Positions 24,851-50,977 of a stretch of 64,000 nt of DNA are shown here, piece by piece. The translations under genes were made by a program, and so were the position numbers. The stretch covers positions 1-64,000 of the forward strand of contig JAGWLG010000008.1 of NCBI GenBank assembly GCA_028864975.1. Reading direction: 5' to 3'. This DNA is from Thermoplasmata archaeon (GTDB lineage: Archaea; Thermoplasmatota; Thermoplasmata; Lutacidiplasmatales; UBA184). The notes beneath the pieces were generated by a model. That model did not search any database, had not been told where the DNA came from, and saw nothing but the letters and a program-made list of their open reading frames with translations. Within the stretch, counting starts at the first letter, position 1; every line of letters begins with the position of its first letter.

Positions 24851-25561
24851 TCAGAGCTTCAGGTCGAGGTGGTGGGGCCAGAAAGCCCTGTCCATCTCCG
24901 ACGAGACCTCCACGGCTCCCGCGAGCGGCACCCGGGAGACCTCGCTCTCCGCGAGCAGCCGCATGACCGCCGGGCGCACGCCCCAGAACCCGAGCCGGGC
25001 CTGGTCCAGAATCTCCGTCGCCGCCCACCGTTGGTCGTCTCCCTTCGCCTCCTCGTGGAGGTAGTACATCAGGGACCGGCTGATGCCGGTCGCCACGCCC
25101 TTCACGTTGAAGGGTCGGCGCTCCTGCGGGGAGGTGGGCGACGGGGCGACTGGCGCGGGCGAGCCCGGCGGCGTCGGAGCCCGGGCCCCCACGGCGAGCG
25201 CTCGCGCAGCGTCCCGGGCGTTGGTCAGGCGCTCCAGGATGACCGCGCGCTTGCGCGGGTCCGGGTCGGAACAGACCTGCTCAAAGAGCAAGTCCCCGAT
25301 GGTGATGGACTCCATCGGTCGGCGCTGGCGCTCTCCGCGCTGCTCCGTTCCGTGGCCACGCATCCGGTTCCGTCGGACCGCCTGCATCACCTCGCGGCGC
25401 AGGTTCTCCGGGAGCGCGGAGAGGATGCCGCCTCCGACCCAGACCGAGCCCGCCTTCAGAGCGGCCACGGTCGGGAGGGCGTTGGGCACCTCGTTGTTTG
25501 CCGGGATACCGCCCGGCGCGGCGTTCGGGTAGGGCACGGCTGGGGTCTGGGTTGCCGTCAT
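24851..25561 (-). CDS. hypothetical protein
   Basis: First ORF downstream of a CGAGGGTGG element. Confidence 0.7.
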   Translation of the reverse strand: MTATQTPAVPYPNAAPGGIPANNEVPNALPTVAALKAGSVWVGGGILSALPENLRREVMQAVRRNRMRGHGTEQRGERQRRPMESITIGDLLFEQVCSDPDPRKRAVILERLTNARDAARALAVGARAPTPPGSPAPVAPSPTSPQERRPFNVKGVATGISRSLMYYLHEEAKGDDQRWAATEILDQARLGFWGVRPAVMRLLAESEVSRVPLAGAVEVSSEMDRAFWPHHLDLKL

Positions 25562-25619
25562 TTTTACCACCCTCGATAGAGGCGGGAGCGCCCCGCCCCT
25601 GGCACCACGCTTCAGCCGG

Positions 25620-26033
25620 TCAGTTGAAAGGTGCGCCCTCGCTCTTGCACCAGCACTCTTCCTTCGTCAGTTGAACGTCCGCGCTTGGCTCGCAAGCGTT
25701 CGCCGGGTGCCGGACGGCCTCGACGCCGAACACCGCGGACACGACCTCGGTTCCCGCGTCGTCCATCGCGCAGAGGTAGTCGGAGTCCACGCCGTCCGGC
25801 CCGCAGTTGTGGCCGCTCTCGACGGTGGACCGTAGCTCGTCCAGAAGGCGCTGCGGCACGATGCCGAAGCTCCCGAGCTTCTCGACCAGGGCAACGGCCA
25901 TGCGCAACTCTCCGAGGGCTGTTCCCCCGAAGTCCCCTCCGGCCACGACCCTAGCCGCGGCGATGAGGCGGCGCACGGACATCTGGCGCTCGTTCGGCGG
26001 TATGGCGTTCGCTGAGGTGTCGTTCTCTGGCAT
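25620..26033 (-). CDS. hypothetical cassette ORF
   Basis: ATG directly after the repeat element. Confidence 0.65.
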   Translation of the reverse strand: MPENDTSANAIPPNERQMSVRRLIAAARVVAGGDFGGTALGELRMAVALVEKLGSFGIVPQRLLDELRSTVESGHNCGPDGVDSDYLCAMDDAGTEVVSAVFGVEAVRHPANACEPSADVQLTKEECWCKSEGAPFN

Positions 26034-26074
26034 GGATTTCCACCCTCGGGTGCGGCCCCGAAGGGCCGCGGCGC

Positions 26075-26392
26075 TCAAGCGTTGTCCGCGTGGTACGCCG
26101 CCCACATCAGGGCTCCGGTGAGGCTCGGCCCTCCGGTCGCGCGGAGAGCTTCCTCCAACACCGCGAGCGGTGCCTGGACCTCCTGGCGCGCCAGGGCGAA
26201 GCGAATGTCCATCAGGGCTCCGCACGCCATGACCGCGTGGTCGGACCGGCAGGCGGCGGTGTGGACGTGGGGCGGATGCTCCCCGAACAGGTCGGAGAAC
26301 ACCCGGTTGGTCTCGGCACGGCAAAGGAGACCGTCAAGGGCGCTGGCGATGGCAAGGTCGTCGCTGGGCGCTGGGGTCGCTCTGTCGCTCAT
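26075..26392 (-). CDS. hypothetical cassette ORF
   Basis: ATG after the element; HxH...C..H cluster. Confidence 0.65.
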   Translation of the reverse strand: MSDRATPAPSDDLAIASALDGLLCRAETNRVFSDLFGEHPPHVHTAACRSDHAVMACGALMDIRFALARQEVQAPLAVLEEALRATGGPSLTGALMWAAYHADNA

Positions 26393-26435
26393 GGTTTCCA
26401 CCCTCGGGTCCGGGCCTCTCGGCCCGGGAATAGGT

Positions 26436-26669
26436 TCACGCCACCTCACCGGAGGCGACGCGCGGTGTGTGTAGCTCCCGGCCCGTGGCCACCGGCGTGA
26501 CGGCTGTCACGTCGCACGCGGCCACGTACCAGGTCCACACTCCGCACGTCTCACCGATGGCGGCGTAGGGACACTCTCCGTGCTGCTCGACCTCCTGGAC
26601 AAGCTCGACACGGAGGTTGTCCCTGATGCGCTCGACCCAGACGAGACTCGGGTCTCGGGTTTGCATCAT
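26436..26669 (-). CDS. hypothetical cassette ORF
   Basis: ATG after the element. Confidence 0.6.
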   Translation of the reverse strand: MMQTRDPSLVWVERIRDNLRVELVQEVEQHGECPYAAIGETCGVWTWYVAACDVTAVTPVATGRELHTPRVASGEVA

Positions 26670-26817
26670 GGGGACCACCCTCGGGCGCCCGGACTTCCAG
26701 AGCCCGGGCGTTGGTCGCTCGCGGGGACGGTGAGAAGGAGCGAAGCGAACCTCTCGTGGACTAAGCCAGGGACGTTCGCTCCTCCCACCTTGGTATAGTC
26801 AGGCGCGGGTCTGGTTC

Positions 26818-27123
26818 TTAGGGTTTTGTACGGTCCTTCGCACGGGCCCGGGCATCGGGATGAGCCCACTCCCGGATGACCGGCATCTGCTTCATCGAGA
26901 GAATCTTCGTGCTCTCGGGAGCCCCGGTCAGGACGATGGCCTCGGCGGTGAACCGCACGCTCTCGTCGGACAGGCCGGCCTTCGCTAGGAAGCTCACTCC
27001 GACCGCCACGGTGCAGACCTGGGCGTTGATGTCTTCAGGGTCGGCGACGTTGTTCTCAAGGGTCTCGGCGAGGTAGCGCGCGATTTCCTTCTCGGCGTCG
27101 GGTACAGTTGCTCTCTTGGGCAT
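26818..27123 (-). CDS. hypothetical cassette ORF
   Basis: ATG after the element. Confidence 0.65.
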   Translation of the reverse strand: MPKRATVPDAEKEIARYLAETLENNVADPEDINAQVCTVAVGVSFLAKAGLSDESVRFTAEAIVLTGAPESTKILSMKQMPVIREWAHPDARARAKDRTKP

Positions 27124-27172
27124 GTGTGTTACCACCCTCGGCGGGGGAAAGGGTTCAGGAGCGCACGGACCG

Positions 27173-27466
27173 TCACGTCAGGTGCTTCCTCCAAAGCAGG
27201 AGGGTTGCACCCGCGATGATGGCCGCTACCGCCAGCGGCACGGCCACACCCGCAAGTAGCGCCACCGGCAGCCCGAGCCACGAGAGGACCGGGAACGTCT
27301 CTGTTCCCAGGCCCAGCACCGCGACCAGGGCCAAGACCACGAGACCCTTCACGACGAGGGCCCGGGGCCCCCAACTGGCGAGCAGCGTTCGGAGCGCGAG
27401 CATCGGTGTCACTCCCTCAGCTTGCGGCTTGAGCCTTGGCCTTCTCCTCGGCTCGCTTGAACGCAC
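27173..27466 (-). CDS. small membrane protein (start uncertain)
   Basis: Two long hydrophobic segments. Confidence 0.55.
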   Translation of the reverse strand: MRSSEPRRRPRLKPQAEGVTPMLALRTLLASWGPRALVVKGLVVLALVAVLGLGTETFPVLSWLGLPVALLAGVAVPLAVAAIIAGATLLLWRKHLT

Positions 27467-27746
27467 GCCAGATGTCCCCGTTCGTTGGCCCGGGGAACTC
27501 CGCCCGTGCTTCTCGGAAGAGGGCTATGGCTCGGTCGCCTACTTCTTCTGAGATTCCGGTGGACCAGCATGTCTTTCGGATGAGGAACTCCGGCTCCCCT
27601 GGAATCCTCGCGTGGGTACTGCTTAGGAGCGCCCGGTGAAGGACCCACGCTTCCTTCGATGGGGAAGCATCTAGGCCCCGCTGGTCCTTCCTTGCCTTGG
27701 ATGCGCGATGCCGTCGCCCAAGCTCCCCCTTTGGTATCTTCGCCAT
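27417..27746 (-). CDS. basic helical protein, weak TFB/cyclin-repeat resemblance
   Basis: LIRKTCWSTGISEEVGDRAIALFREA. Confidence 0.55.
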   Translation of the reverse strand: MAKIPKGELGRRHRASKARKDQRGLDASPSKEAWVLHRALLSSTHARIPGEPEFLIRKTCWSTGISEEVGDRAIALFREARAEFPGPTNGDIWRAFKRAEEKAKAQAAS

Positions 27747-27999
27747 CTTCTCTCCTAGCCCTGGCCTCGTTCTCTTCAGCTTGCGCCGAGTACCGCTCCG
27801 CGCTTCGGTCGCGGCGGCAGCACGCCGGTCTTCAGGGCTTCCGAGTACGCGGCGAACGTATCCTCGTCCATCCCGAGCACGACTTCAAGGAGCGCGCTCG
27901 CTGCCGGGTCCCTCTTCTCGTCCAGCACCCGGACGTGCCTCTTCAGGAGGTGGACCGCTTCATGGATGGCCGCGTGGTCAGGCATCGGACGCTCTCCGG

Positions 28000-28359
28000 C
28001 TAGGCCCTCGCGTTCTGGCGGTCCGCTTCGGCGATGGCTTCCTGAAGCTGCGCGACGAGGGTCCTGGCCTCTCGCAGGTTCAGCGTGAACCCGAACTCCT
28101 TCTCCTTCCGGGAGAAGTACAGCCTCACCTGGCCCCCGAGAATCGTTCCCTCGGAGCCGCGGTACTCGGACAGGGTGAACCCCTGGCCGTAGGCACTCGC
28201 CTTCAGGTTGTCCATGTCGAGGACGACCTTCCCGACCACGCCGTTCCGTCGTCTGCTGTCGCCCTCCGCGTAGTCCTCGCTCACCCAGCCGGACACGGTG
28301 CTTCCGGCTCGGTCGTTCGCCGATTGCTCTCTCGTCGCCTGTTCGCTTCCGTTCATCAT
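28000..28359 (-). CDS. hypothetical cassette ORF
   Basis: ATG after the element. Confidence 0.65.
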   Translation of the reverse strand: MMNGSEQATREQSANDRAGSTVSGWVSEDYAEGDSRRRNGVVGKVVLDMDNLKASAYGQGFTLSEYRGSEGTILGGQVRLYFSRKEKEFGFTLNLREARTLVAQLQEAIAEADRQNARA

Positions 28360-28415
28360 GGGTTTCACCACCCTCGGGTCCGCCGGTCACCCGGCGGGAA
28401 TGAGTTCGCTCGGCC

Positions 28416-28847
28416 TTACCGCTTCCTTGCGCGCTTCGACGGCTGCGCAGCCGTCAGCACGGACCGTAGCGTCGTCGTGAGACCGTCAAGCTCCTTCACG
28501 ATGTCACCGACGAGCGCCTTCACCCCGCCGCGCATGGCCAGGCTCACCGCTCCGCCCAGGCCGGACTGCGCACGGTGAAGCTCCTCGGCGGCGCGCTCCG
28601 TCGCAGCAGCCAGCCGGTCCAACGGCTCGCGCAGCCGGTCCACGCTCGCCAGAACCTCCCGGCGCACGTCCGGGTCCAGGTCTTTGAAGGACGCGATGCC
28701 CTTCTCGCTGAAGGTCCGCAGGTCCCCGAGCGCGGAGGCAATGGTCCGAAGGCGCTCCTCCTCGGAACTGCCCCCGCTCTCGCCCTCGGCAGCGGTCGCT
28801 CCCCGGCGCACCGTCAACGTCGCTCCCAGGAGCCCCATCTCACTCAC
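28416..28847 (-). CDS. helical-bundle protein, paralog of 36996-37436
   Basis: Gap-free 62-aa alignment with the 36996 ORF. Confidence 0.7.
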   Translation of the reverse strand: MSEMGLLGATLTVRRGATAAEGESGGSSEEERLRTIASALGDLRTFSEKGIASFKDLDPDVRREVLASVDRLREPLDRLAAATERAAEELHRAQSGLGGAVSLAMRGGVKALVGDIVKELDGLTTTLRSVLTAAQPSKRARKR

Positions 28848-29325
28848 CTCCGACGGGCAGGTGAGGCAGCAGGTCCAGGGGAAGCAGGTTCTTCAGCATC
28901 CCCCGGCCCACGTCCACCGACGTTCGCACGAGCCCGGGCACGTCCGCGCCCTGGACCAGGGCGAGCAGGCTCTTCATCCCGTCCGGTCCGTCCAGTATCC
29001 GGCACTTGTACCAGCCCTCCCGGATGAAGGACGTGGTGTGGCCCCCGGCGACGCCCACGACGTAGGCCGTGGTCCTGATGCCCAGGCCCATGTCCACGTT
29101 CTTGAGGAGGATTCCCCGCAGCGGCTTCGGGAGGTTCAAGCGCTGGATGGACTCCGCCCGGTCGGCGAAGTACTCCAGGCACGCGGCCTCTACGGTCTCG
29201 ACCGGGGCGGGGAGGTTGTTCATCCCCAGGATGCGCGAGGTCAGTTGTCCCATCGCGGTCTCCAAGAGGGAGAACCGCGGTTCGTTCGGCGCTCGGCGTT
29301 CTTGCTCTCGACGTGGCTTCGACAT
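28840..29325 (-). CDS. hypothetical cassette ORF
   Basis: ATG after the element. Confidence 0.7.
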   Translation of the reverse strand: MSKPRREQERRAPNEPRFSLLETAMGQLTSRILGMNNLPAPVETVEAACLEYFADRAESIQRLNLPKPLRGILLKNVDMGLGIRTTAYVVGVAGGHTTSFIREGWYKCRILDGPDGMKSLLALVQGADVPGLVRTSVDVGRGMLKNLLPLDLLPHLPVGGE

Positions 29326-29846
29326 GGTTTCCACCCTCGGCAGCCGCCCCGGTTCCGGGGCGGGAAGAGGTTCACGCGCTCTCGACGTAGCTGCGCTCGG
29401 GGTAGTTGGGGCGCGGGCGCGGTGCCCACACGACGCCCGGGGTTCTGAGGTCGGCCCAGGTCTTGAGGGCCGGGAGTTCGGCGGCGGCGCTGGCGCTCTT
29501 GCTCTCGTGTTCGTTCATGGGTTCCACCCTCGCGTGGCGCGCGGCCTATCAGACCCTCCCGTGCCGCTCGGGAGAACGGCGCCCGGCATACGCCAATCCG
29601 GCGTCCGTGCATGAGGGAAGGGGTTCCTGGGTCGCGTACCACCCTCGGCGGCGCGCCCCGAAGGGCGCGGAAGTAGTTCACTCCTGGCCTTCCAGGGTCT
29701 CGGAGTCGTGGACCCCGCCACACTCGTCGCATGGCCCGGTCCCGGCGAGCGTCGGGTCGCGTTCCCCGGTCGGCTGCTTCTTCTTGGGTTTGCTCTTGGG
29801 CATTTTCACCACCCTCGGCGGCGCGCCCCGAAGGGCGCGGAAGTAG

Positions 29847-30071
29847 TTAGAGAGGGAACCGCTTCGCAGATTCCCGCCGCTTGAGGTTCATCGTCGCGTG
29901 CTGCTCGCACATCGGGACCTTGCGCCCCTTCCAATCGCTGACCCTGCACGTTGCCCTGCGCGAGCATGTATGCGGTTGTCTTCCGTTCATCGGGCCTCTC
30001 GTCGTGGTCCAGAAGACCGCTTGGCAGTTGGTACTTGTCAGGTCCGGCGGGAACAGTTCACCATCTCTCAT
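29847..30071 (-). CDS. Cys/His zinc-binding cassette ORF
   Basis: C..C...C...CEQH; ATG after the element. Confidence 0.6.
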   Translation of the reverse strand: MRDGELFPPDLTSTNCQAVFWTTTRGPMNGRQPHTCSRRATCRVSDWKGRKVPMCEQHATMNLKRRESAKRFPL

Positions 30072-30115
30072 GGGTTCCACCCTCGGCGGCGCGCCCCGAA
30101 GGGCGCGGAAGAGGT

Positions 30116-30358
30116 TCAACCTTGACCGTGCCGGACGAGAATCGGCCCGCTCTTCTCGTAGGAGTCACGGTCGCTGAACGGGAAGAACTCCCCGACAAGC
30201 GGGAGCGCCACGTTCACGAAGGTTGTCCCGTTGTGGTCGCGGTACTCCGGCAGGCTCGCGTCGATGGTCTCGATGGTCGCTATTCGGCGGATGGCGCTCG
30301 TCGGCTCGACCCCGCCGCTTGCGCTGAGCAGGGTCCGTACGGTGTCGGCTTCGTTCAT
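30116..30358 (-). CDS. hypothetical cassette ORF
   Basis: ATG after the element; stop lies inside the next element. Confidence 0.65.
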   Translation of the reverse strand: MNEADTVRTLLSASGGVEPTSAIRRIATIETIDASLPEYRDHNGTTFVNVALPLVGEFFPFSDRDSYEKSGPILVRHGQG

Positions 30359-30430
30359 GGGTTCCACCCTCGGGAGGCAGCGGGCCGCGCCTCATGGACT
30401 TTGCCGCGCGCCCCGCTGCTGGTATCGTTC

Positions 30431-30691
30431 TCAATGACCGTGCGTGTTCCTTCCGAGAAGCCGGTCGCTCTGGTATCCGGCCCACACCGGCCGACCATCG
30501 CGGTCCAGGTCCAGGAACCGTACCGCGACCTCGTACTGCCCGCCCTCGGGCGGTTCAATCGTGAGCGTGTCCACGCCACGGTGCTGCGCCACCCAGATGA
30601 AGCCGCGCTCGCGGTTCGTACCGAAGTGGGTCTTGCCCTGGAAGAACTGGTCGATTTCGTCGCGGTAGCGCTCTCGGATGCTCTGATTCAT
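30431..30691 (-). CDS. hypothetical cassette ORF
   Basis: ATG after the element. Confidence 0.65.
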   Translation of the reverse strand: MNQSIRERYRDEIDQFFQGKTHFGTNRERGFIWVAQHRGVDTLTIEPPEGGQYEVAVRFLDLDRDGRPVWAGYQSDRLLGRNTHGH

Positions 30692-30904
30692 GGGTTCCAC
30701 CCTCGGGTAAGGCGGCGGCGAGCGGCCTCCTGCTTCGCGCGTACTGAACCGTGCGTCTTGCGTTTGCTGAAGGGCCTTGCCCTTCCTACGACCTCACACG
30801 ATGCTTCCGCACCGACAAGGGGGGGACTCATGCCCGCCACCACCCTCGGCTTTGGCGAGGGGCCGGGGAAACCGCCCGGCCCCGATTTGCGCTCGGCCCG
30901 GCCC

Positions 30905-31246
30905 TCAGAGAAGGCCGAAGCGGTGCGCGACCTTCTCGTCGATGGTCCCCGGGTACACCCGCCCGGTGTTCCCGCTGACCGGACCGCTGAAGGTCCAGCC
31001 CTTGTAGGACCCGACCCCCTGGCCCTTGTAGGTCCCCACCTTGATGCCGAGACGCTTGGCGATGGCGGCAGGGATGGCGGCGGCGAACGCGCGACCGTTC
31101 TCCGGGTTCACCCGGCCCGTGTACACGCGCTCCCCCGCTCGGAAGACCCCGAAGGTCTTCCCGTCAAGCTCCAAGGTCTTCACCTCGGAGAAGACGACGG
31201 TCGGCTTTGCGGCGCTGGCTCCGGCGTTCTTGCTGCTGGCTGGCAT
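30905..31246 (-). CDS. basic hypothetical protein, first gene of the leftward arm
   Basis: ATG after the element. Confidence 0.7.
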   Translation of the reverse strand: MPASSKNAGASAAKPTVVFSEVKTLELDGKTFGVFRAGERVYTGRVNPENGRAFAAAIPAAIAKRLGIKVGTYKGQGVGSYKGWTFSGPVSGNTGRVYPGTIDEKVAHRFGLL

Positions 31247-31261
31247 GTTGTACCACCCTCG

Positions 31262-32870
31262 ATTCTGACGTGAAAGGGAAAAGGTTGTGGACGTGGCACG
31301 TCGGGAGGTTCCTCCGTTTCCGGTACACGCGCGGCCCTTCCGGGCTCGTACCCCCGATTCTGTTCGACTCGCGTGAATCCATCTAATCGTCTGCGCCCCG
31401 AGCCTTCCCGGCCCAGTACTTTGACTCTCGCGCCACGTCCGGCGGCGCTGGTGGTTTTTTTGGTGGGCAGCCCGACGCCGGTCCTCTCAAGACCGACCCC
31501 GGACCGCCCGTTTTAGCACACAGGGTTCGCGCTCCCCTCTTCTCCATCCCGTTCGACTCGCGCCCGCCCGAAGGCCGGTCCGTAAGAGTCCGTAGCCCAA
31601 CCCGACGATTCATCATCGGCGGCGGAGGGACGGGCATAGACCAGCCGTTGTCCAGGCTCGCGTCGAACGGCACGGGAGGAAGTAGAACCACCGTCATAGC
31701 GCACCACTTGGAGTCGCCCTCCCCGTCAGTACCCGTCTATCCTCTAAGGGAACGGGAGACGAGAGAACCCTCCCCACCTCGGACCCTGCCCAGGCGAGAA
31801 AGTTGGCCCCTCCAAGAACGCACGCTCCGATGGAACGTCACGCCCCGTGCATGATGCTCTCCTCTCTTTCACCAAGAGAAGGAGGCGGGCTCACCCGGGA
31901 CGGTACACCGCCCCGGGACCCCTGCGACATTACGGGGGCGCCCACGGTCGGCCCGAGAGGGGGAGTGCCCTTGAGGGGTTGCCCTATCACCTCCCGGTAA
32001 GCTCGCCTTTCGGCGAGGGACCGACCGGAGAACCTGGGTGGACCTTCGACCCTCGGAGGTATGTCCACCTCCGAGCGCCGGGTCTCTTCCCGTTCGCTCC
32101 GCCGCCCACGTTCGATGTACTTCGGCGGGGCGCGCCCCGCACCCCCGGAAGGGTGGGAACGCGGTCCCCCGCCGAGCGGCGCGCCCTCACGGGAGCGCCG
32201 CTTCAGCCTGCTCCCCGTAGGGAGCGGACCCAGACCTGGGCGGGGACGGACCCCGCCGCGCCGAGGAGGGACGGCCCCTCGGCGCGCTCGGCCTGACGCC
32301 GGACACGGCGTACCGAGGGCAGGGCGTGGCGGCTACTTAAGGGTAGTAGAACTGTTCTATCACCCCCTGCAAAGTGGGTTGCGCCCGGTGCAACCGTCGC
32401 CGTTCCCGGCCCGTCGGGACAGGCTGAGGGTCGGACCGAAGCCCCCGGAAGAGCCGGAGGGGGTTCTACGCGACGCACCGAGAAGGACGGTCAAGACCCC
32501 CCAGGGTTTGCGCCCCGACCGCCACCCGCGTATATAGACGGGAGGTGAAAGTTTCGGGGGCGCAAAGGGTCGGTCCGAACCGGCGCGCTTCGACGGCCCC
32601 GGAGGGAGGTGGAGGAGCCCTACCCACCAGCGTTCCGAGGTGCGCGCAAACCCGGACCGGCAAAAATGTCCCCGAGAGCCCGTCACACGGGGGACGTGGG
32701 CCTAGATACGTGGGGGGGTCGGCCATACCCCCCATTTCCCCTGCGACGGCCCTTCCGGGCCCTGCTACGCCGCTCCCGGGACCGCGTACGAACCCGCGCC
32801 GGAGATGCTCCCGGGCCCGCGGTGCGCGCTCTCCGAAGGTCCTAAGAGCCCGGGTGCTCCTCTCCCTTTG
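31262..32870. other. long strand-switch region, apparently non-coding and hairpin-dense
   Basis: Only low-complexity shadow ORFs; many stems; TATA-like CTTAAG at 32336 and TATATA at 32531. Confidence 0.6.
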
Positions 32871-32873
32871 TCC

Positions 32874-48955: not shown

Positions 48956-50977
48956 GTGGCAATCAGTGGGCTTCTCAGCGCTGTCGAGTCCATCCAGGTC
49001 CGCTCTCTTCTTCCCCAGGTCCCCAACCTCCTTCTTCTCGCCGGGCAGACCCCTGCGCTCACCGCGCTCGCTGCCGCCCAGCCTCAGATTCAGTCCCTCC
49101 TCGTCAATTCGCTGGCGCTGAGCCCCCTCTTCGGTGGCGGCATCATCGCGCACCTCGTCCAACTCGCCACGAACCCGGTCTTTGCGAACCTCATCACGCT
49201 CGCCACGCCGCCGACGTTCAGCAACATCGTCGCGCTCACGTCCGGGGTGGCGTTCGTCAATCTCTCCGCCCTGGGCGCTCTCCCTTCCGTCCTCAACCTC
49301 GTCGCCCTGGCGAAGCTGTCGTCGGTGACGAACCTGGTGACCCTCGCAGGACTCCCCTCCGTGGGGAACCTTGTCACCGTCGCGGGTGCGCCTTCCACGA
49401 CGGTCACGAACGTCCTCACCCTTGGAACCGGCACCGTCTTCACCAACCTCAGCACGCTGGGCTCTCTCTCCTCCGTCGCGAGCCTCGTCACCCTCGCGGG
49501 ATTCTCCTCGACCGCGATGAGCAACCTCTCCATCATCGCCAACTTCACAACGAGCACCTTCGCCAACTCCGGGCCGGCGTACAACCTCACGTCGTTCTTC
49601 ACGAGCAATGCTTACCCGACCCTTCCGGCCGGAGGCGGCTTCCCCAACATCACCGCGTGGTTCGTCGCGCTCCAGAGCGCCCTCTCCATTAGCAACCTGG
49701 CGCTCTCGACGTTCTCCACCCAGCCGGCTGCGACATCCTCCGGGTTCAACTCCTCGCTCCTGTTCATCCCGGGTCTCGGACGCACCGGCCTCGACATGAC
49801 CACGACCCTCGGCAGCTTCTCCTCCCTTTCTTTCCAGGGCGGAGTGGCCGACATCCTCGGAACCCTCCCGCTCCTCGGCGCCATCGAGGAGACCGTCGCC
49901 ACCCTCGGAAGCCCGACCGGTTCCCTGCGCATCACGTCCATCGGCGCTGACAACAGCCTGCTCCACGACCTGTGGCAGTTCGCGCAGCGGCTGGAGAACG
50001 TCAACGTCATCGGGCTGAGTTCGCTCCCCGAGTTCCCGACGTCTCCTCTCGCCGGAACGCTCGGCTTCCTCCAGGCCGTCGAGGTCATCACCCGGCAACT
50101 CTTCTTCCAGACCGGCTACACGATTGCCTCGTCGGGAACGGTCCTCGACGCGGCGATGACCTTCTTCACCGGCGGACCCAACGTCTTCGGCTCGACGAGC
50201 AGCCGGCCCACCGGTCAGTTCCCCATCCAGCAGGGCGTCGCCACGGACATGATTGACACCCTCCAGTCGATGACCGACTGGGCCAACAACGGGATGGGCG
50301 TCCAGCACTTCCTCAACAACGCCGCCGGCCCCTTCCACGACGAGGAGGCCTCCTGGAACGGCAGCGCTCCGGGTTCCTCCGCCCTTTCCGGGCACAAGGG
50401 AGGGTTCGCTTTCGGGACGTTCTTCGCCAACACGGGTGGACCCTTTGGCGGCACCGGCTTCTTCACTGTCGGGGTCCAGTCGTGGTCCTTCTTCATCTAC
50501 GGCGACCAGGTTGCCGGTGTCTCCGGGCCCGATGGCTCCGGGAACATGACCGTCACCGGGACGAGCGGAGCGACGTACACTGTCTCGACCGGGGCGACAC
50601 CGACCGGCTCTCCATCTCCCCAGAACGTCTTTGGCGGCGCAGCCAACATGGCGTGGGGCAACATGGTCGCCATGCTGAGGGCGTTCCACCAGGCCACGGA
50701 CTTCCTCATCTCCGGGTTCGAGGCGCAATCGAACACCGGTGCCCTTGGCTCCCCTTCGGGAGACATCTTCCGGGCGCGGGTCGAGGCCTACCTCCACCGG
50801 GTCGCGTTCGACAACTTCGTGGACACGATGGCCACGGAAGTCGGGAACCTGTTCAACGGCCGGAACCTCGGCATCAAGACCCGGTTCTTCAACGACGGGG
50901 TCCTCCCTGGTCTCAACTCGGTCAGGAACCTCGCTCCGGCCGGGCTCCCCAACAGGAGCCTCGGTACCCTGAGCTAG
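48956..50977 (+). CDS. large hydrophobic repeat protein, putative virion/envelope component
   Basis: About ten 12-aa repeats (VxNLVTLAGLxS-like), very low charge. Confidence 0.8.
   Translation: MAISGLLSAVESIQVRSLLPQVPNLLLLAGQTPALTALAAAQPQIQSLLVNSLALSPLFGGGIIAHLVQLATNPVFANLITLATPPTFSNIVALTSGVAFVNLSALGALPSVLNLVALAKLSSVTNLVTLAGLPSVGNLVTVAGAPSTTVTNVLTLGTGTVFTNLSTLGSLSSVASLVTLAGFSSTAMSNLSIIANFTTSTFANSGPAYNLTSFFTSNAYPTLPAGGGFPNITAWFVALQSALSISNLALSTFSTQPAATSSGFNSSLLFIPGLGRTGLDMTTTLGSFSSLSFQGGVADILGTLPLLGAIEETVATLGSPTGSLRITSIGADNSLLHDLWQFAQRLENVNVIGLSSLPEFPTSPLAGTLGFLQAVEVITRQLFFQTGYTIASSGTVLDAAMTFFTGGPNVFGSTSSRPTGQFPIQQGVATDMIDTLQSMTDWANNGMGVQHFLNNAAGPFHDEEASWNGSAPGSSALSGHKGGFAFGTFFANTGGPFGGTGFFTVGVQSWSFFIYGDQVAGVSGPDGSGNMTVTGTSGATYTVSTGATPTGSPSPQNVFGGAANMAWGNMVAMLRAFHQATDFLISGFEAQSNTGALGSPSGDIFRARVEAYLHRVAFDNFVDTMATEVGNLFNGRNLGIKTRFFNDGVLPGLNSVRNLAPAGLPNRSLGTLS

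Follow-up and report, generated by a model that had tools for sequence, protein, structure and literature searches.

A strand-specific array of hairpin and start-associated box units in an ORFan-rich, probably viral element of a Thermoplasmata archaeon: a putative RNA-level punctuation between cistrons

The DNA analyzed here, called the window in the following, comprises 64,000 nucleotides (nt) from an uncultured Thermoplasmata archaeon (GenBank assembly GCA_028864975.1, contig JAGWLG010000008.1, positions 1 to 64,000), i.e., the first 64 kb of an ORFan-rich contig of 119,883 bp, which appears to be a mobile element, probably a virus. In the leftward arm of the window, the 9-mer CGAGGGTGG, hereafter the motif, recurs in an array of small intergenic units. 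A complete unit consists of a pyrimidine box, a GC hairpin, and the motif, which is followed after a short spacer by an ATG. For each distinct unit, the 34 nt 5′ of the motif (48 nt for unit 4) were folded, and z-scores were obtained from 200 shuffles. The array, its units in the direction of transcription, and the preceding leader are as follows (ORF, open reading frame; aa, amino acids; GC3, GC content at third codon positions).

Whole array, 25559..31286, minus strand: 15 units; 17 small ORFan genes in 13 modules of one to four genes; two ORF-less units
Leader, about 31287..32873, minus strand: 1.6 kb, gene-free, highly structured, 5′ of the array, sole location of host-type TATA boxes below 33000 on this strand
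Unit 1, 31244..31286, minus strand: pyrimidine box AACCTTTTCC; no hairpin (z +0.7); motif 31253-31261; spacer TACAAC; ATG of a 113-aa gene
Unit 2, 30829..30882, minus strand: hairpin with z −1.6; motif 30840-30848; dubious 47-codon ORF (GC3 0.62), thus effectively ORF-less
Unit 3, 30689..30729, minus strand: weak hairpin, not significant; motif 30697-30705; spacer AACCC; ATG of an 86-aa gene
Unit 4, 30356..30419, minus strand: 43-nt hairpin, −31.6 kcal/mol, z −3.6; motif 30364-30372; spacer AACCC; ATG of an 80-aa gene
Unit 5, 30069..30116, minus strand: pyrimidine box AACCTCTTCC; hairpin CGCGCCC-UUCG-GGGCGCG; motif 30077-30085; spacer AACCC; ATG of a 74-aa gene
Unit 6, 29801..29848, minus strand: pyrimidine box AACTACTTCC; hairpin and motif as in unit 5; spacer TGAAA; ATG of a 41-aa gene
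Unit 7, 29639..29678, minus strand: box, hairpin, and motif identical; "empty", start codon absent; an extra pyrimidine box at 29616-29625
Unit 8, 29516..29565, minus strand: irregular structure, not significant; motif 29524-29532; spacer AACCC; ATG of a 48-aa gene
Unit 9, 29323..29372, minus strand: pyrimidine box AACCTCTTCC; hairpin CCGCCCCG-GAAC-CGGGGCGG, z −2.8; motif 29331-29339; spacer AAACC; ATG of a 161-aa gene; kept in the relative L094
Unit 10, 28354..28406, minus strand: pyrimidine box AACTCATTCC; hairpin CCGCCGG-GUGA-CCGGCGG, z −3.1; motif 28368-28376; start at ATG 28359 or, likelier, 28356; kept in L094 (loop GCGA)
Unit 11, 27121..27155, minus strand: pyrimidine box AACCCTTTCC abutting motif 27132-27140; no hairpin; ATG of a 101-aa gene
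Unit 12, 26667..26710, minus strand: 10-bp hairpin, z −2.9; motif 26675-26683; spacer TCCCC; ATG of a 77-aa gene
Unit 13, 26390..26436, minus strand: pyrimidine box AACCTATTCC; hairpin CCGGGCC-GAGA-GGCCCGG, z −3.6; motif 26398-26406; spacer AAACC; ATG of a 105-aa gene
Unit 14, 26031..26069, minus strand: hairpin GCGGCCC-UUCG-GGGCCGC, z −2.5; motif 26040-26048; spacer AAATCC; ATG of a 137-aa gene
Unit 15 (last), 25559..25600, minus strand: 9-bp hairpin, z −1.3; motif 25567-25575; spacer TAAAA; ATG of a 236-aa gene; downstream genes tightly coupled

Within 25567-31261, the motif is present in 15 copies, all on the minus strand, at an expectation of about 0.2. This is exactly the number given by an earlier inspection of the letters alone (the sequence-only reading). 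The whole window contains 18 copies, likewise all on the minus strand, while dinucleotide shuffles of the whole window contain 2.0 on average and never more than 7. Its three outliers at 49899, 63108, and 63823 had been regarded as in-frame hits; according to GC3-based gene calls they lie antisense to plus-strand genes. On the full contig (20 copies), CGAGGGTGG is the most over-represented strand-specific 9-mer, and an unbiased count of the 8-mers found 3-9 nt 5′ of ATG codons returned fragments of CGAGGGTGG at all top ranks. Genome-wide (3.6 Mb) its frequency corresponds to background, with 174 copies vs 161 for the reversed control. The conserved core is wider than the 9-mer and reads C-CGAGGGTGG-W, or C-CGAGGGUGG-W as an RNA box; this box is identical in every copy. 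For 13 of the 15 copies, the ATG of an ORF with a GC3 of 0.75-0.90 follows at a distance of 5-8 nt, and all 13 motif-associated starts are ATG. The location of the motif in front of start codons had thus been correctly recognized earlier, only that 13 and not 14 small ORFs follow it. Copy 30848 precedes the dubious ORF of unit 2, which runs into the following unit, and no ATG is found within 26 nt of copy 29647. Start positions of the array genes agree with independent gene calls (locus L027). The array is a real feature under selection.

Spacing and start signals of the array genes differ from those in the rest of the arm. The gap upstream of a gene has a median of 56 nt in the array (range 41-213) vs 4 nt for 29 genes further down the arm. 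Among the latter, nine of 29 start with GTG or TTG, and their Shine-Dalgarno (SD) sequences are varied and canonical (GAGGTGAGG, GGAGGAGTGA, GGAGG), in line with the ordinary SDs reported earlier for this part of the arm. Also the four module-internal genes of the array without motif have canonical SDs, e.g., GGAGGTGAG at 28838. The pyrimidine box, first described as a GAAC-pyrimidine tract, proved to be real at nine intergenic positions with the consensus AACYYHYTTCC, beginning at or just after the preceding stop codon. It is absent from six units, and the motif is present in all; in six hairpin units the distance from box to motif is 31-34 nt.

Three neighboring units (motifs at 30085, 29817, and 29647) share 35-41 identical nt bounded by the stop codon and the end of the motif. 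This confinement of identity suggests that the unit itself was copied or converted. Among the cassette proteins no paralogy was found, the downstream genes being mutually unrelated ORFans. Since these proteins share no similarity, duplication of genes did not spread the motif. Two tiny Cys/His-rich cassette genes of 74 aa (29847-30071) and 41 aa (29678-29803), whose products may be zinc-binding proteins, are located between the three identical units.

A defined hairpin ending 2-4 nt before the motif (with a longer gap in unit 2) was found in nine of the 13 distinct units, and six units reach a z-score of −2.5 or lower, with equally good folds in 0-3 of 200 shuffles. The hairpins have a common structure and no common sequence and could not be aligned by MAFFT; pairs were therefore counted on a gapless stack instead of using a covariance model. 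Five independent hairpins have stems of 7 bp and loops of 4 nt. Each of their 35 stem cells pairs, and C-G as well as G-C occurs in every column, while mismatched arm combinations (5′ and 3′ arms from different hairpins) gave only 49% pairing. On the coding strand, four of the five loops (UUCG, UUCG, GUGA, GAGA) belong to the UNCG/GNRA class (chance of at least four of five, about 2e-5), and none does when the opposite strand is read. Extending the count to all perfect tetraloop hairpins of array and leader gave 8/22 GNRA/UNCG loops on the coding strand and 0/22 on the other; for the rest of the window the numbers were 7/83 vs 2/83. Of the loops, UUCG (in four copies, of which three belong to the identical units) and GAGA had been noticed in the sequence-only reading, and GUGA is added here. 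Compensated stems and the restriction of UNCG/GNRA loops to the coding strand indicate that the hairpins work at the level of RNA and are selected as structures of the sense transcript. The spacer together with the ATG is predicted to be more open than random sites (probability of being unpaired 0.58 vs 0.39 ± 0.19); for copies of the motif inside ORFs, this probability is 0.30. A structure in which the pyrimidine box pairs with the motif on the other side of the hairpin, and thereby masks the ribosome binding site (RBS) until a terminating ribosome frees it, was also considered and rejected, as it is predicted in some units only and not conserved.

Conservation of the units was analyzed with L094, a contig of 1,592 nt from another sample that was reached via the 90% cluster of the 161-aa protein. 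It matches window positions 29460-28083 at a DNA identity of 80-88%; for its 140-aa protein, the identity is 73%. Both units covered (9 and 10) are retained in place, with 18/18 motif positions and all stem positions identical. The loop of unit 10 is changed from GUGA to GCGA, by which the GNRA class is kept, and that of unit 9 from AA to TT, which equals a flip of the perfect palindrome. In the pyrimidine box, TCATTCC is replaced by CTCTTCC, so that the pyrimidines are kept and the A/T content is not; in the linkers, one base is gained or one changed. The adjoining ORFan coding sequence is far more diverged than the units. As ATG 28359 corresponds to AAG in L094, the gene behind unit 10 probably starts at 28356. 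L094 also has an additional 68-aa gene (L094:627-833, vs window 28838-28840) between the 163-aa and the 140-aa genes. It is flanked by directly repeated canonical SD/stop/start junctions (…GGTGAGTGAGATGGGGC, …GGTGGCGTAGATGGGGC) and not located at a hairpin unit. Such repeated canonical gene junctions look like sites of gene gain or loss. Shuffling of cassettes at the element boundaries, as proposed in the sequence-only reading, is therefore not supported by the comparison with this one relative: the sole gain or loss seen lies inside a module at a canonical junction. The 35-41 nt shared by three units do, however, hint at conversion from unit to unit.

For comparison with the host, start signals were taken from genes with unambiguous starts. 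The 16S rRNA gene of this genome is archaeal and its 3′ tail reads GGATCACCTCCTAAC. SD use by the host is modest, with pairing energies of −8 kcal/mol or lower at 20-29% of the starts vs 12-15% in a control window. Among the 154 host copies of the 9-mer, an ATG follows at 4-9 nt in ten cases, which corresponds to chance, and only one copy opens a plausible ORF, of which the ATG is internal. The motif-to-ATG spacing fits the SD range of 5-10 nt; the box also holds positions unable to pair with rRNA, and GGAGGUGAG, an SD inside the array, pairs with the anti-SD at −15.2 kcal/mol. A motif that equals the complement of the host anti-SD and occurs genome-wide would have spoken against the region-specific signal proposed earlier. 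With one start-like copy among 154 and a pairing energy of −7.3 kcal/mol for CGAGGGUGG, this is not what was found, and on these sequence criteria the motif is not the SD of the host. Another complementarity to the host 16S rRNA (locus L009 on G000:C124) is found at about nt 109-119, where UCUGCCCUCGG can form a duplex of 11 bp, including two G-U pairs, with the extended motif CCGAGGGUGGA at −21 kcal/mol. Of 60 shuffled motifs none was better, the best reaching −20.9, and the duplex is likely a coincidence because the 16S segment probably lies within a helix.

Host-type promoters and terminators are absent from the units. At unambiguous host starts, the TATA hexamers TTTAAG, TTAAGT, and AAATAG are enriched 40-80-fold at −39 to −22, and the AT content is increased at −33 to −26. 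This TATA signal and the modest SD use match "group D" of GeneMarkS-2, to which all 11 Thermoplasmata genomes were assigned there and in which first genes are leaderless and internal operon genes have an RBS (PMC6028130). None of the units contains a host-type TATA hexamer or an AT-rich element. On the coding strand below 33000, only TATATA (32531-32536) and TTAAGT (32335-32340) are of host type, and both are located in the leader. Between 32666 and position 1, the coding strand is free of runs of five or more T, vs about 4.6 such runs expected from base composition. Genes for TBP or TFB were not found on the contig. With neither a TATA box in the units nor an oligo-T terminator in the arm, the cassettes probably represent internal cistrons in need of an RBS.

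The leader extends from the divergent JAB gene to the array and is without Rfam match. For a stretch of 989 nt in it, the predicted folding energy is −537.5 kcal/mol vs −476.8 ± 8.4 for shuffles (z −7.3), and the coding strand of the leader bears UACG- and GAAA-capped hairpins. The leader may represent a large structured RNA or an origin of replication. It is the probable starting point of the transcript of the arm, and the whole leftward arm, 1-32666, may be one transcription unit. TATATA (32531-32536) is directly followed by CGCGGGTGG, a copy of the motif with one mismatch. A degenerate unit at 32047-32072 reads GGAGGT-GGACAT-ACCTCC into CGAGGGTCG (one mismatch) and has no start codon. These two one-mismatch copies are within chance (about 0.7 expected). 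On the coding strand at 32149-32156, CCACCCTT is an 8-bp complement of GAGGGUGG, to which we give little weight, about 0.15 such cases being expected by chance.

Taken together, we consider it somewhat more probable than all other explanations combined that the units serve at the RNA level as punctuation between the cistrons of one long transcript, made from an archaeal mobile element. Transcription would start at the canonical TATA promoters in the 1.6-kb leader and extend leftward over the entire arm. Over the initial 5.7 kb, the genes would be translationally uncoupled, as gaps of 41-213 nt separate them, and each module would therefore need fresh internal initiation. Initiation would be provided by the invariant C-CGAGGGUGG-W, 5-8 nt before the ATG, via imperfect pairing to the 3′ end of the 16S rRNA. 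The tetraloop-capped GC hairpin 2-4 nt upstream might insulate the start site, stabilize the RNA, or mark a processing point. Since the box is invariant, weaker than a canonical SD, and partly unpairable with rRNA, a sequence-specific factor (protein or nuclease) probably also reads it and treats the 13 modules as one regulon. Co-transcription, use of the box by the ribosome, and the existence of this second reader are what we infer here. The RNA-level translation or processing signal suggested by the sequence-only reading fits with the sense-strand hairpins and with the motif and stems kept in L094.

Several observations weigh against this punctuation of a long transcript. The pairing of CGAGGGUGG with the anti-SD at −7.3 kcal/mol is weaker than that of GGAGG (−8.7 kcal/mol), and the motif itself is not unusually exposed (predicted probability of being unpaired 0.34). 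A significant hairpin is wanting in four units, and two units have no downstream ORF. A candidate trans-acting factor for the box was not found among about 40 neighboring proteins. Also, the 31-34 nt from box to motif in hairpin units would suit the distance from a TATA box to a transcription start site (TSS), provided that the pyrimidine box served as a promoter element of an unusual kind.

A similar, poorly understood arrangement with a box of this kind is the start-associated sequence (SAS) and its extended form (ESAS) in cluster K mycobacteriophages, an asymmetric box in 11-19 copies of one orientation located 3-7 bp before mostly ATG starts (PMC3203893). SAS copies are found in the non-structural genome part at genes with long upstream gaps (over about 50 bp) and ATG starts, combine an SD core with conserved positions unpairable with 16S rRNA, and are unused by the host; about half of them carry an upstream inverted repeat (PMC3203893). 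The array resembles this in its one-strand box, with 13 of 15 copies 5-8 nt before an ATG, and in its median gap of 56 nt. However, SAS membership requires no more than two mismatches to the consensus GGGATAGGAGCCC (PMC3203893, PMC12699233), whereas the motif here is CGAGGGTGG, and the SAS host is bacterial. The ESAS consists of paired 17-bp inverted repeats, which are conserved in sequence, not RNA-compensated, and read as DNA-binding sites (PMC3203893). In contrast, the stems here vary in sequence, always pair (35/35), and carry RNA-type tetraloops, and the units have an additional pyrimidine box. The array may be the first archaeal start-associated-sequence system, i.e., a private non-canonical box C-CGAGGGUGG-W behind a hairpin by which an element or host factor switches 13 promoter-proximal modules as a set at the level of translation or RNA processing. 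We put this forward tentatively, with well below even confidence. Such a system in archaea was not found in the literature and databases searched.

One alternative is that each unit is a self-contained promoter module, with the pyrimidine box as an unusual BRE or TATA box, the motif as start or operator, and the hairpin halting upstream transcription. Repeated intergenic promoter modules have been proven for an archaeal virus and for T4-type phages. The class I/II intergenic repeats of halovirus HF2 are proven promoters with the TATA box CTTTAAGT and a start-site motif, present in 7 + 2 copies over tens of kb, hairpin-free and not adjacent to start codons (Russ, Pfeiffer, Dyall-Smith 2021, PMC8707807). 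Phages RB49 and phi1 contain eight promoter(early) stem-loop (PeSL) cassettes in about 5 kb among small ORFans of an accessory region (Arbiol et al. 2010, PMC2839356). These comprise a strong sigma-70 promoter with an AT-rich upstream region and terminating stem-loops, and gene exchange is documented (PMC2839356). The units share with PeSLs the dense packing and the design of a stop-to-ATG intergenic cassette with stem-loop and SD flanked by ORFans. With the HF2 repeats they share the character of repeated intergenic regulatory modules in an archaeal virus (here a probable one), kept in sequence and position among relatives and proposed as targets of virus-encoded factors; both units covered by L094 are kept in place. 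The distance of 31-34 nt in six hairpin units would put a start at the C-G-A of the motif, and two hairpin-less units have their pyrimidine box about 22-38 nt before the ATG, which is the location of the host TATA box. However, the pyrimidine box is C/T-rich, not A/T-rich, and the relative even loses A/T there (TCATTCC to CTCTTCC). Six units do without it although all have the motif. The units contain neither a host-type TATA hexamer nor an AT-rich element as in PeSLs, and the contig has no TBP or TFB of its own. No oligo-T (U) tract follows the hairpins, and their sense-specific UNCG/GNRA loops indicate that they are transcribed. In further contrast to PeSLs, the single gain or loss seen here (one relative fragment) is off the units. 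We therefore regard promoter modules as unlikely. By anatomy and placement, SAS/ESAS and PeSL appear closest to the units, with the HF2 repeats as the nearest archaeal precedent. As a defining feature of each family is missing (consensus, promoter content, or TATA box), the units are to be seen as an analogue and not as a member.

To the same degree improbable is the view that the units are mainly RNA processing sites, in which an endonuclease reads the hairpin and the single-stranded C-CGAGGGUGG and cuts the transcript into single-module mRNAs, the likeness to an SD being secondary. In the early region of phage T7, stable single-gene mRNAs result from RNase III processing at hairpins that separate the cistrons of one long transcript. 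A capped hairpin, a linker of 2-4 nt, and an invariant single-stranded box would indeed suit a nuclease requiring structure plus sequence, and the hairpin at the 3′ end would shield the upstream fragment. Both ORF-less units retain full hairpin and motif, which a pure RBS model leaves unexplained, and the invariance of the box exceeds the needs of a ribosome. On the other hand, T7 sites have long, irregular double-stranded stems cut by a bacterial enzyme and no invariant single-stranded box by the start codon. The stems here share their position between cistrons, but differ from known RNase III or bulge-helix-bulge substrates in being short and perfect, and have such a box. Four units are without hairpin, no nuclease candidate was found on the contig, and the fixed distance of 5-8 nt and the ATG-only starts favor translation.

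Still less probable, and in our view very unlikely, is that the units are recombination substrates by which cassettes are captured, lost, or shuffled in the manner of integrons or PeSLs, the adjacency to start codons being incidental. Like integron attC cassettes, the modules are promoterless ORFans in the same orientation with a short constant core and a variable hairpin whose structure is conserved above its sequence. The two ORF-less units could be relics of lost cassettes, the 35-41 identical nt in three neighbors suggest unit-to-unit conversion, and PeSLs do recombine (PMC2839356). This likeness to attC is, however, superficial. The hairpins are perfect stems of 7-10 bp with RNA-type loops, there are no extrahelical bases and no R″/R′ cores (RYYYAAC / GTTRRRY), and nothing 5′ of the hairpin complements the motif. 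A search with PF00589 gave seven matches to tyrosine recombinases genome-wide and none on the contig, which thus lacks an integrase. Moreover, the sole gain or loss relative to L094 occurred at a canonical SD/stop/start junction with both flanking units kept, and a sense-strand RNA loop signature is unexpected for a DNA site. That the motif is an ordinary SD variant, its copies alike by chance or recent local duplication, is the least probable explanation and nearly dismissed: it contains GAGG/GGUG able to pair with the anti-SD, and lone copies stand before ATG in many unrelated genomes, but 15 identical copies were found vs about 0.2 expected, hairpin sequences and downstream genes are unrelated between units, neighbors in the same arm use different and stronger SDs, the motif is unchanged in a relative with flanks 12-20% different, and host gene starts do not use it.

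RNA-level punctuation at these modules would be of interest in several respects. SAS and ESAS have been known since 2011 with a mechanism still wanting, and the archaeal array provides an independent example. Its RNA signature is cleaner (compensated stems, sense-only UNCG/GNRA loops), which suggests that at least this version acts in RNA. The sequence-only reading was made without knowledge of the archaeal host, by which the applicable promoter, terminator, and nuclease analogies are changed. Archaeal mRNAs are mostly leaderless, and internal-cistron translation and the marking of viral gene classes are poorly understood there; for their study, the array provides a box of 10 nt in 13 natural contexts, together with a conserved relative. 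Also, the unit marks true start codons and module boundaries, which is useful for the annotation of an element consisting almost only of ORFans.

Every cassette protein is an ORFan, so that a role of these genes in early host takeover, as suggested in the sequence-only reading, is hypothetical. Pfam and PHROG searches with about 40 neighboring proteins, and a protein atlas for the first cassette protein, gave no lead to an RNA-binding protein, nuclease, or regulator. For the 236-aa, 161-aa, and 140-aa proteins, homologues outside the lineage were absent among 5.8 billion proteins. Three further assemblies contain the region, including the 236-aa protein, and are 100% identical to the window, thus providing no variation. 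The 90% clusters of ten cassette proteins gave no additional variants, a walk outward with the proteins of L094 returned only L094, and a final homology search likewise gave the L094 protein alone. A search for related loci on viral contigs with two proteins gave none. On the DNA level, megablast of the region against a phage database gave no matches, Rfam gave none at the gathering threshold or at E ≤ 1, 400 Thermoplasmata genomes yielded only matches at noise level, and the extended motif was absent from 40 relatives. Scans of IMG/VR, JGI metagenomes, and GTDB genomes for the exact 18-mer returned lone copies in unrelated DNA of 39-71% GC, with a duplicated coding segment of a Bacteroidaceae metagenome-assembled genome as the sole exception; tblastx of the metagenome loci with the 18-mer showed only compositional noise.

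Recognizable genes of the contig encode a MoxR-type ATPase, a topoisomerase-like protein, ParA, an Erv1/Alr oxidase, a JAB protein, DUF3846, and a transposon, and furthermore UbiA, a geranylgeranyl-reductase-like protein, a HerA/FtsK-type ATPase, and a PKD-domain protein. Circularity of the contig was considered and rejected, since its ends share only an imperfect 74-nt match. This direct match between positions 1-74 and 119806-119879 has 89% identity and is not an assembly overlap; it could be a paralogous coding sequence or diverged terminal repeats. The best PHROG match of the HerA/FtsK-type ATPase (contig positions 87960-89828) is a packaging ATPase. Homologues with 48-50% identity are found in three other Thermoplasmata genomes, on contigs (G017:C49, G392:C2, G285:C52) which have one to three genes in common, without synteny to the array and without a start-associated k-mer. 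This ATPase may mark a wider family of Thermoplasmata elements.

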